Assembly: GCF_964194025.1 (NCBI RefSeq)
Contig: NW_027453023.1
Span: 1-64,000 of the forward strand
Reading direction: 5' to 3'
Length of the DNA: 64,000 nt
DNA from: Convolutriloba macropyga
Taxonomy: Eukaryota
In this document: piece after piece, positions 40,801-43,800 of the stretch
Numbering within the stretch: position 1 is the stretch's first letter
Layout of the letters: each line of letters opens with the position of its first letter
Notes under the pieces: model-generated
Seen by the model: the letters and a program-made list of their open reading frames with translations, nothing else
Told to the model about the DNA's origin: nothing
Databases searched by the model: none
Program-made: the position numbers and the translations under genes

Positions 40801-43800
40801 CAGACTCCGTGAAGAGTTGTGATCACTCTTCCTCAGTAGAGAAACAGATTGCAACAGATCAACAATCTGAGTCCCTCAGTCTGGGCCCTTATGGGTGCAT
40901 GATTGGACATGGGGTGCATGTGTGGCAGAGCGGTGTGGAGGTGCGCCGCGAGAGAAAGGGGACCATCGGTATTGATCAGCCTATCAGTCAGTTCCAGTCG
41001 GACCAACTGCATCCAGACGGGCTGATCAACTATGCGGTCAGGGACATCAGGGTGGTGGACCGGTACTTTATGCCGAGCGTGCCTATCACTCTGGTTGAGT
41101 CATGCGCGTTGACTATGGCCGGGCTGCGAGCGGCCTTGGAGGAGGGAGTGCATGTGAAGAAGTATGTCTATCAGGATACGTGGCATCTGGCGCGAGATTA
41201 CATCCCACAGATGCTGGACGTGCTACATCAGCATTACCCCTTTCAGCTCCCAAAGAGTGCCATCTCGCGGGCACTGGAGGAACTCCCCATGGACCTGCAC
41301 AAAACCACTCCCAGACATTGGGAAACGGTGGGTCAGGTGGACTTATTCATCGCGGGCGGAGAGTGCCCACCGTTCAGCCAGGCGTCAGGAAGGGCCCGGG
41401 GGTATGAGGACCCGCGAGCGCATGTGACGCCAGCGTTGGTTGAGAACATATGTTATCTGTACGACGTTCAGAGAAACATGGGGGGGATTGGTTACATTAT
41501 GGAGAATGTGCCAACAGCCGTGTTCGACCCAGTCAACCGTGCCATGCTGGGATCCCCAGTGGTGATGAACGGGGTGCCACTAGGATCAGTATCCAACAGG
41601 CGCACCGCCATCTGGCAGAATTTATTAAGGCGACAGAGCCTATGTCACAGATTCCAGAGCCGACCAGATAAGCCAGTAATCACCCTTCGGAAATTCCTGA
41701 AGGACTTCCCAGGGTGGTCGCCGCAGGAGGCGGTGGCTGATGTGACAGTCAAGTACAACGCCGATGGAGTCCATCGCATCCTGCCTAAAGCTATGGCTAG
41801 GCAGGACACCCACACCATGCGAGATTACCAGGGCAGGCCGGGGGCAGGAAAGCTGATCTTCAATGGCCAGCCGGAGCGCCCGACAACTGAGATCAAGATC
41901 AGGTCAGTGGGAGGAGACCCAAGGCATTTCTCCCACATTCCTGAGGAAATCCAACACACCATCATCGGGAAGTCCATCGACGTCAACATCCTGAGACACG
42001 TGATCAGGTGGGGGCAAGAGGAAGCTCGTCAGGACCCGTTCCCGGGGCAAGGCGGTGAGCAGCAAGCCTGGTTTGTGGACCCAGTGGCGGACGAGGCCAA
42101 CGGGGGTGACAAGCTGGCCCCCACGGTAGTCTGCGCGCTGATGTATCTGGCAGCCTGGGCCCGGTCTGGGGGCATGTTAGGCGAGGCAGTGGCTAGGACG
42201 ATCCTGTCCAGCGTTGCAGCCGCCACGGAGGCACCTTCAGACACACCGGCCTCATACGAGGTGGAGCCCAGCAACCCCAGGGCCGTGGACTGCGTCCAGG
42301 AAGGCGACTATGTGGAAGTCCCCTCAGAGAAGATGGAAGGGGTGTCATACCGCATGGGTACCACCCTTACCACTGAAGACCAGCAGATGGCCAAAGGGGC
42401 CATGGACTCCATGGGAGAACTGTGGAGCATGTCCAAGACAGATTTGGGCAGAGTCAAGAACTATGAGGCTACTGTGGATATTAAGGGTAGCCCTATCAGG
42501 CGGAAAGGCTACCGACTGAGTCACGGCGAGCAGGAATTCCTGGACGACTGGTGCCAGCAGATGTTGAAGGCAGGGGTGATCGAGCCTTCCAACGCAGAGT
42601 GGGCAGCAGCTACTCTACTGCCGCCTAAGAAAGACGATGACGGTCAGTGGACAGGCCGCAGGGTGGTTCACGATTACCGCCCGCACAACCTGCAGACAGA
42701 CCAGTTGGCATATGTGGTTCCAACCACACAGGAGATACTGCAGGAGACCGCCGGCCACCAGTGGTATACAGTCTGCGACATCAGGGGGGCGTACAACACG
42801 CTACCCATCCGGATGGACCATAGGGATAAGACCTCTTTCTGGGGGGTGTCAAATCTCTACAGATATACCTGCATGCCCATGGGGCTGAAGAATGCGGGTA
42901 TCTCCTGGCAAAGGTGTATCGACTCCATTCTGCAAAACGTGCAACGAGACGCGCTGGAGGAGTTGAACAAGGTCAGGCGTTCCGAACAGGAGGAGCCCCT
43001 TTCAGAGTTGTCTTACAAGTCAGGAGTCAAGGCATATGCAGATGATATAGTCATCTACAGCGACGGGTCTTTCGCCGAACATTTGCTGATGGTCCTGGTG
43101 GTCTTCGGCCGACTGAGGAAGGAGGGCATCAAGCTGGTGCCCGGAAAGATGAGACTAGCTGTGGACCGCGTGGCTTTTCTCGGACACTATATCTCCAAGG
43201 ACGGCATCGCCCCCCATATGGACAAGGTACAGGCGATCAAGGATCTTGCGGCGCCGGTAGGAGTACCAGCGCTGAGGTCGTTCCTGGGGATGGCTCAGTA
43301 CTACGCCCACTTCATTCCGAAATTCGAGGACATGAAGAGACCACTAACCCAGTTGGTCAGGAAGAACGTCAAGTGGAAGTGGGGCGAGGCTGAGCAGACA
43401 GCATTCGAGGAGATTAAGACATCGTTGACTACCGCACCTGTCCTAGCCACTCCGGACTGGGACAGGACATTTTATGTTCACACCGACTGGTCCAAGAACG
43501 GCAGCGGTTATGTTCTCTGTCAGAAAGACGATGAGGGCAGGGAACGAGTCATCGCCTACGGTTCGTCAGTCAACAACGACGCCGAGGCAAATTACTCGTC
43601 ATACGAGGGCGAGTTGACCGCGGTCCGCAAGGCGTTGAAGGCCTTCAGATACTGGATCGACCGCCGGCATTTTGTGGTAGTTACCGACCATCTTCCGCTG
43701 TATTGGCTGCTGACCACACCCAATTTGCGGGGGAAGTTTGCCAGGATGGCTGTGGAACTCTCAGAGTATGAGTTCACCATTCAGCACCGAGAGGGGGCAA

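Follow-up and report, generated by a model that had tools for sequence, protein, structure and literature searches.

Several retroelements are described as carrying cytosine methyltransferase domains, among them SymbioDIRS-Dnmt3, SymbioLINE-Dnmt and KnitGypsy-Dnmt3 (PMC5890265); DNMT3 is also mentioned in Copia and DIRS elements (PMC12344493). Cited papers are drawn on here and below for the passages that bear on these elements and enzymes. In those passages the SymbioDIRS domains, which methylate CG in yeast, are the only ones shown to be active (PMC5890265). Here we describe a DNMT3-like C5 cytosine methyltransferase domain borne by a Ty3/Gypsy element in the first 64,000 nucleotides (the window) of contig NW_027453023.1 from the Convolutriloba macropyga assembly GCF_964194025.1. 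Judged by its sequence, the domain is likely to be an enzyme that modifies cytosine and has been rewired or weakened, and not a dead relic.

An earlier, sequence-only reading had placed DNMT motifs I, IV, VI, VIII and X, in this order, between the third 2A-like motif and the reverse transcriptase (RT). All five lie in one frame, starting at 41085 (ITLVESCALTMAG), 41340 (DLFIAGGECPPFS), 41493 (YIMENVP), 41592 (SNRRTAIW) and 41961 (IIGKSIDV), and the catalytic Cys is residue 2173 counted from the first Met, as it had been numbered. The description of the domain as fused to RT applies to the frame as translated, since the protease might cut the 173-codon linker. With the single sequence, PF00145 scored 12.9-13.8 bits, below its cut-off of 22 (E 0.04-0.07), and none of five phmmer matches in the PDB was a methyltransferase. 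PF00145 was matched by 14 of 17 same-genome family members (best E 1.7e-12), and profiles of the family returned DNMT3A as the top PDB match (E 9.9e-15 with 17 sequences, 5.4e-27 with 47), the top 29 PDB rows being DNMT3A/B/C in both profile searches. Two AlphaFold models of the domain (pLDDT 84.1 and 87.3) matched DNMT3A/B in Foldseek (E about 1e-13; TM 0.64-0.65 by query, 0.77-0.80 by target), while VIA gave Z 26.4 for DNMT3B (270 aligned, rmsd 2.9) and 23.7 for the best bacterial enzymes. The C5-methyltransferase fold, on which the earlier assignment depended, is thereby recovered, with DNMT3A/B as the best structural match. Because 14 of 17 relatives match PF00145, the profile finds DNMT3A and the models match DNMT3A/B, the methyltransferase signal is not due to chance. 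Motifs I to X are unpermuted, i.e. not arranged as in DRM (model residues 22-339 onto DNMT3A 631-910), and by descent the domain is of DNMT3 type, as judged from sequence and predicted fold. Because FxG and RxR were checked and neither is present, the domain is not classed, on its sequence, as a canonical active C5-methyltransferase.

The unusual residues were assessed against 154 relatives, namely 27 same-genome paralogs and 127 outside homologs. The latter derive from a profile search of 1.84 billion representatives that returned 306 at E < 1e-30; the best 150 were taken and the 127 that span the full domain are counted, the 23 without a full domain being left out. Loss of the Phe of FxGxG, earlier listed as an oddity, is not special, Cys occupying this position in 37/127 outside homologs and 23/27 paralogs. 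Likewise, the change of GN to GK concerns a residue that varies freely (R 44, N 27, Q 22 and K 2 of 127; GRS in DNMT3A), and RRT in place of RxR cannot be called element-specific, as the second Arg is missing in 27/27 paralogs and 19/127 outside homologs. Loss of motif I as a whole was overstated, since the length and register of the family loop are kept (posterior > 0.95), but the replacement of its Gly by Leu is real. What is specific to the focal subfamily is this change and a few neighbours: apart from Leu, the subfamily residues unseen in the 154 relatives are S30, T34, W57, G116 and P119 (numbering of the modelled domain). The CAL sequence is not an assembly slip, because it is shared by all four other copies that span motif I; contigs of four public runs list no difference at CAL, these being non-independent (one study, possibly the source sample).

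The remainder of the catalytic machinery is well preserved. The Cys, Ser, Glu, Arg and Asn of the catalytic set are invariant in 154/154 relatives and are all kept in the focal domain, which departs at 2 of the 16 columns conserved at 90% or more, one of them a one-residue insertion artefact, and keeps 41 of the 58 columns at 70% conservation (clade range 29-51). The motif II and III acids have a role in binding S-adenosylmethionine (SAM). They are D/E and D/N, respectively, in 127/127 outside homologs and both Asp in the focal domain, and together with the G-x-S of motif X they have persisted over a branch of 1.5-1.9 changes per site. In motif VIII, the second Arg covaries with the LP[T/K] motif: 108 of the 127 outside homologs combine Arg with Thr, 18 a residue other than Arg with Lys, and one is an exception, while 27/27 paralogs are of the non-Arg, Lys kind. 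Arg loss and Lys gain amount to one change on the tree; this covariation therefore marks a clade and does not constitute repeated evidence. That this Lys corresponds to Thr in the TL motif of bacterial enzymes was considered and set aside, as the DNMT3A alignment did not confirm it.

The claim that the frame is intact and not decaying was borne out by comparison of the domain with five other copies, in which the ratio of non-synonymous to synonymous rates (dN/dS), obtained by simple counting from pairs that all include the focal copy and are thus non-independent, ranged from 0.06 to 0.24. Synonymous/non-synonymous counts were 5/4, 20/4, 45.5/17.5 and 20/8 over 316 codons and 98.5/37.5 over 235 codons, with matching dN/dS of 0.24, 0.06, 0.10, 0.12 and 0.06 (binomial p 0.04 to 7e-33). 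The ratio (Ka/Ks) is below 0.2 in four of the five pairs (0.06-0.12), and the fifth, 0.24, rests on nine changes. For RT-RNase H, dN/dS was 0.02-0.44 in four full copies. At 18 key sites there is no amino-acid change in any covering copy, and silent changes occur at several of them. Decay is rejected because dN/dS is low in all five comparisons. To this extent the earlier rejection of decay stands; the argument offered for repurposing is not supported, three of the listed oddities being shared with relatives, and repurposing itself is no more than possible.

We give roughly even chances to the domain being a de novo methylase that, though remodelled, continues to use SAM and acts on the complementary DNA (cDNA) of its own element, probably at CG and probably slowly. 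It would be made together with RT, RNase H, integrase and the PHD finger and would move with the replication complex. Because it is translated with RT and integrase, the likely substrate is cDNA, in line with a proposal in PMC5890265, and the target of methylation would be the element's new cDNA. In such a reaction the domain would flip out a cytosine, Cys2173 would attack C6 with the aid of the Glu of ENV and of the first Arg, and the clade Lys would take the place of the lost second Arg in the active site. Methylation may mark the cDNA as self, shield it, or preset chromatin at insertion (inferred after PMC5890265). The retention of Cys, ENV, the first Arg, the motif II/III acids and G-x-S on a long branch fits a SAM-holding enzyme in a remodelled pocket. 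A large residue at this loop position also occurs in some class I methyltransferases, COMT among them; we found no paper that backs this comparison. A sister Gypsy lineage has lost the motif I Gly separately (Ser, 5/27 paralogs) and is likewise under selection (dN/dS 0.03-0.19); its CpG ratio (0.39-0.45) is below that of every other Gypsy element measured. M.SssI F17S and G19D show low, still detectable methylation (PMC3804486).

A number of observations weigh against a SAM-using methylase. The motif I Gly is present in 127/127 outside homologs, the 27 paralogs have Gly (22) or Ser (5), and Leu is found in 0/154. Unseen residues occupy 6 of 29 pocket columns and 15 of 236 columns elsewhere (p 0.017), the pocket columns having been defined after the unseen residues had been looked at; 23 comparison members have 0-5 unseen pocket residues each. 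Replacement of the same Gly crippled M.SssI and M.HpaII (PMC3804486), and for the second Arg, Dnmt3a R202A has ∼12% activity (an 8-fold loss) and M.HhaI R165A is 100,000-fold lower (PMC4802922). The Lys rescue would be a single clade event, with an active-site position that the DNMT3A alignment leaves unconfirmed. In addition, KnitGypsy-Dnmt3 gave no methylation in yeast in the passages describing that assay, a result its authors judged inconclusive (PMC5890265), and the CpG ratio of the focal element (0.68-0.82; repeat A 1.16) is no lower than in the flanks (0.71-0.74).

The same pocket changes, namely Leu for Gly, the nearby Trp and four further unseen residues, together with the absent second Arg and no additional CpG loss in the element, could also suit a protein that has lost SAM use and binds cytosine or DNA without methylating it, in the manner of DNMT3L, so as to clamp, shield or position the cDNA or block host methylases. 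Dnmt3a R202A retains DNA binding (PMC4802922), and DIRS-borne adenine methyltransferase domains have been called likely inactive (PMC4738411). However, the focal domain retains Cys, ENV, the first Arg and both SAM-binding acids over a long branch. DNMT3L is without such residues, which also counts against a binder, and we consider this role rather unlikely. We regard as quite unlikely a SAM-blind, base-flipping C-to-U (or 5mC-to-T) deaminase that would work through the kept Cys, Glu and Arg and, on DNA of the element or the host, serve as a mutator or counter silencing as an editor. The changed pocket beside kept catalytic residues is consistent with such an activity, and both altered motif I positions are sites of in vivo deaminase variants, M.HpaII F38S and G40D and M.SssI G19D (about 10-fold) (PMC3804486). 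Transitions at 4-fold sites are more frequent at CpG (44/320) than at other C (53/673; p 0.006), but a 1.7-fold excess of this kind would also result from ordinary methylation, and a single outgroup copy, whose changes are unpolarized, accounts for most of the events. Repeat A is not CpG-depleted (1.16), no clear mutator footprint was found in the element sequence, the reaction is slow in known enzymes with 5mC deamination by M.SssI undetected (PMC3804486), and the covalent step, too, is weakened when the second Arg is lost (PMC4802922). In its broader form, a natural SAM-blind DNMT3 with cytosine flipping and covalent chemistry under selection, acting as C-to-U editor or methylation blocker in a chlorophyte clade with a rewired Arg-to-Lys site across Gypsy, Copia and LINE elements, would on its sequence be unlikely; if true, it would be an evolved counterpart of laboratory mutator methyltransferases.

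Cytosine methylation of RNA or of RNA-DNA hybrids, with the element transcript or a replication intermediate as substrate, is an idea raised for SymbioLINE-Dnmt (PMC5890265). It would be in keeping with the clade-wide alteration of motif VIII and the variable region and with the presence of the same domain in LINEs, elements that lack a free cDNA stage. The DNMT3A/B matches lie far above those to DNMT2 (E 1e-14 vs 4e-8 or weaker), and such a role for the focal domain is very unlikely. That the domain is a decaying passenger is highly improbable: a single sequence under the Pfam cut-off and breaks within the domain in 2/5 other copies would be expected of one, but dN/dS is low in all five pairs, one of them at 60% synonymous divergence, and the predicted fold is confident. 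The CpG ratio was tried as a proxy for activity and rejected, as it does not track motif I: it is 1.15 in the Gly-keeping L074, 0.47-0.54 in Gly-keeping LINEs, 0.39-0.45 with Ser and 0.76-0.84 with Leu. The domain is present in each of the 12 RT neighbours fetched, leaving no DNMT-free control element for CpG. Sequence footprints fail to decide among these readings. If true, a compact, rewired methylase would be useful as a tool, and so would a CG deaminase of natural origin.

The DNMT clade is shared by other retroelements. In the Gypsy elements of the same genome the domain precedes RT (12/12 RT neighbours fetched), or lies between RNase H and integrase (L074 and L075); in Copia elements it lies between Gag and protease (L064, L072, L076; P0014, P0017, P0176 (Tetraselmis striata)). 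In L081 (C122), P0010 and P0087, DNMT is followed by an RT of unclassified type, and motif VI reads ETS in place of ENV. L065, L066, L067, L070 and L073 (on C2229, C333, C1707, C4596 and C4007) and P0004 are LINE-like single frames of up to 5061 codons with CpG ratios of 0.47-0.54, encoding an endonuclease (in P0004), RT, PHD, a PCIF1-like adenine methyltransferase, then the DNMT3-like domain and RNase H. A DIRS-like identity of L065-L073 was ruled out, their near relative P0004 having endonuclease, RT and RNase H. Their PCIF1-like domain has NPEY where NPPF/Y is usual. By sequence these frames represent a two-methyltransferase non-LTR (long terminal repeat) element, which is probably more novel than the focal finding and is absent from the relevant literature passages. 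Among the best 150 outside homologs, the commonest layout is RT-DNMT-integrase with canonical RxR (46 proteins), and word-indexed protein searches returned near relatives only (1 of 2115 candidates and 2 of 8000 scored). Non-synonymous changes are far below synonymous ones per site in 12/12 paralog pairs (dN/dS 0-0.19 in ten, two saturated). In this genome the paralogs form a natural series in which the SAM loop has Gly, Ser or Leu; each kind is under selection, and four types of retroelement are represented.

In both DNMT trees the focal domain falls among DNMTs from Copia, LINE and post-RNase H Gypsy elements (support 0.84; SH-aLRT 87-91), and the focal RT groups weakly with pre-RT Gypsy (0.55). 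In the first tree 12 near-duplicate loci were dropped; the second is a quick tree of 35 Lys-clade rows and 12 of the 109 Thr-clade rows. A swap of the DNMT domain in the focal element was considered and set aside, constraint to the pre-RT group not being rejected (p-AU 0.48, 26 rows). Separately, a tandem run with a period of ∼1500 nt follows the A-type repeat region of a Gypsy-DNMT copy (L110/L074, C1925:6000-15500).

The features of the focal element are collected in Table 1. The frame encodes, in order, a Gag-like region with Cys/His knuckles, a protease-like DTG, three 2A-like motifs, DNMT, RT, RNase H, integrase and PHD. The repeats are laid out as A-ORF-B-A-B (ORF, open reading frame), and the same split repeats occur in all four related Gypsy loci examined. 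The B1-GC-A2 junction (45570-45607; cf. 47057-47078) joins both element ends as …ACGACA GC TGTCGT… and resembles a circle junction with two extra bases, in an element with a DDE integrase and a 4-bp duplication. At least four further full copies at 94-99% identity and at least one partial copy at 79% are present in the same genome, and the focal element is a young retroelement. The three 2A-like motifs are found in all full subfamily copies and in 1/150 outside proteins, but the other loci scanned lack them. These putative motifs would split Pol from Gag-protease; a literature search on 2A-like motifs in this setting returned general papers only. Between motifs 1 and 2, ∼980 codons (37665-40595) without a Pfam match have a dN/dS of about 0.2 and appear to encode an unexplained cargo protein.

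Table 1. Features of the focal element and of its DNMT domain, in window coordinates
Feature	Position	Strand	Remarks
Split-repeat Ty3/Gypsy element	33328-47074	+	TG...CA ends, CTTA 4-bp target duplication
Repeat A1, 1400 nt	33328..34727	+	1 mismatch vs A2; starts TG, CTTA just before
Single open frame	34797..45707	+	3636 codons, no internal stop; first ATG 34848
DTG, likely aspartic protease active site	36972..36980	+	by sequence; no Pfam match in protein
2A-like motif 1, GIEPNPGP, putative	37638..37661	+	sequence
2A-like motif 2, DVEQNPGP, putative	40596..40619	+	sequence
2A-like motif 3, DVETNPGP, putative	40746..40769	+	sequence
101 codons from 2A-like motif 3 to DNMT domain	40770..41072	+	no family match; strong conservation across copies
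DNMT3-like C5 cytosine methyltransferase domain	41076..42029	+	model residues 22-339; profile and fold
Motif I loop	41085..41123	+	Cys at Phe position; Leu codon 41109-41111 at Gly
Motif II Asp, kept; Trp two residues on	41175..41183	+	Trp unseen in 154 relatives
Motif III Asp, kept	41292..41294	+	D or N in 127/127 outside homologs
Motif IV with catalytic Cys 41364-41366	41340..41378	+	Glu before Cys 58/127; Pro after Cys 0/154
Motif VI ENV, kept	41493..41513	+	sequence, outside homologs
Motif VIII	41592..41615	+	first Arg kept, 41598-41600; second Arg to Thr, 41604-41606, clade-wide
Lys of LP[T/K] motif, variable region	41787..41789	+	co-occurs with second-Arg loss
Motif X, G-K-S	41961..41984	+	DNMT3A: G-R-S
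RT and RNase H	42672..43769	+	PF00078, PF17919, PF17917; RVT_1 E 1.7e-18
Integrase zinc finger and core	44112..44612	+	PF17921; PF00665 32.5 bits vs cut-off 32.6
PHD finger	45234..45362	+	weak, E 0.063; relative L078: E 1e-10
Repeat B1, 83 nt	45505..45587	+	identical to B2; GC links B1 to A2
Repeat A2	45590..46989	+	pairs with A1
Repeat B2	46992..47074	+	ends CA, then CTTA

The contig looks, from its sequence, like that of a Tetraselmis-type alga co-assembled with the animal. The sampled long scaffolds of the assembly have 34-38% GC, Wnt genes and, outside retroelements, only DNMT2-like matches; the window has 48-63% GC. An intron-bearing rhodanese/sulfurtransferase gene of chlorophyte type lies at 49343-51393; one exon is 82% identical to a Tetraselmis transcript and 57-61% to other chlorophytes, and its top match, P0208 (99%), bears an animal name in its source. 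Of ten DNMT relatives looked up in one set, two are named as Copia proteins of Tetraselmis striata, and a second set of ten includes a pol from Scenedesmus; none of the 20 is named as Klebsormidium nitens. An exon-wise genome search with PF00504 (light-harvesting) gave no candidates and lends no support to an algal origin, absence being unproven, and against it stands one Copia-DNMT copy found within a 75-Mb scaffold, where the local GC is ∼50%. This copy (L072, C6:8211000-8220500) has 99%-identical 406-nt repeats and sits at a step from ∼50% to ∼40% GC; it may be algal DNA that was mis-scaffolded, or may have been transferred into the animal genome. Elsewhere in the window, 109 copies of a 113-bp tandem repeat (6528-18878) lie between a MULE transposase frame (3621-5486, minus strand) and a FAR1 frame (19099-20160, minus strand). 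The sequence-only reading cited such domains from charophytes and dinoflagellates, whereas the host here looks chlorophyte; DNMT3-bearing elements would in that case be extended to chlorophytes. The literature searched holds no report of DNMT3 elements in chlorophytes or of Leu in motif I, although supplementary material to PMC5890265 (Fig. 13), to PMC12344493 and to a 2026 preprint (bioRxiv 10.64898/2026.05.21.726589) may bear on this, and in the passages concerned PMC9998398 gives no DNMT3 in green algal MMETSP transcriptomes.

The closest described element is KnitGypsy-Dnmt3 of Klebsormidium nitens, which likewise combines Gypsy domains with split repeats of DIRS-like kind, has an intronless DNMT3-like domain within its Pol frame and is under purifying selection (de Mendoza et al. 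2018, PMC5890265). Likened by its published description, the focal element is of KnitGypsy-Dnmt3 type, and the order of RT, RNase H and integrase fits. It differs in its likely chlorophyte host and three 2A-like motifs, and whereas key residues are reported as conserved in KnitGypsy-Dnmt3 (PMC5890265), the focal domain keeps Cys, ENV and the first Arg, has lost the Gly and has RxT for RxR. SymbioDIRS-Dnmt3 and SymbioLINE-Dnmt of Symbiodinium are also retroelement C5 methyltransferases, the DIRS one in an RT polyprotein with the A-ORF-B-A-B layout (PMC5890265). However, SymbioDIRS uses a tyrosine recombinase, in contrast to the DDE integrase, TG...CA ends and 4-bp duplication seen here, and its domain has been shown to be active, whereas the focal domain is known from sequence alone. 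The EpiLTRs of Cymbomonas and Euglena are LTR elements with a cytosine methyltransferase, one of them a chlorophyte case, but their DNMT is sister to DNMT4 and accompanied by DAM and a chromodomain (bioRxiv 10.64898/2026.05.21.726589), in place of the DNMT3-like domain and PHD found here; a Pfam scan of the focal protein at E up to 1 returned neither DAM nor a chromodomain. Mammalian DNMT3A and DNMT3B resemble the focal domain in best profile and fold, unpermuted motifs, WxN of motif VIII and G-x-S of motif X; the domain differs from them in its ∼15% identity, in CAL for FDG, RRT for RAR and ECP for PCN, in a longer variable region and in having no PWWP or ADD. M.SssI G19D and M.HpaII G40D also combine altered FxG positions with intact catalytic residues (PMC3804486), but these are engineered, acidic substitutions, whereas the change in the focal domain is natural and hydrophobic, is accompanied by surrounding changes and is under selection.

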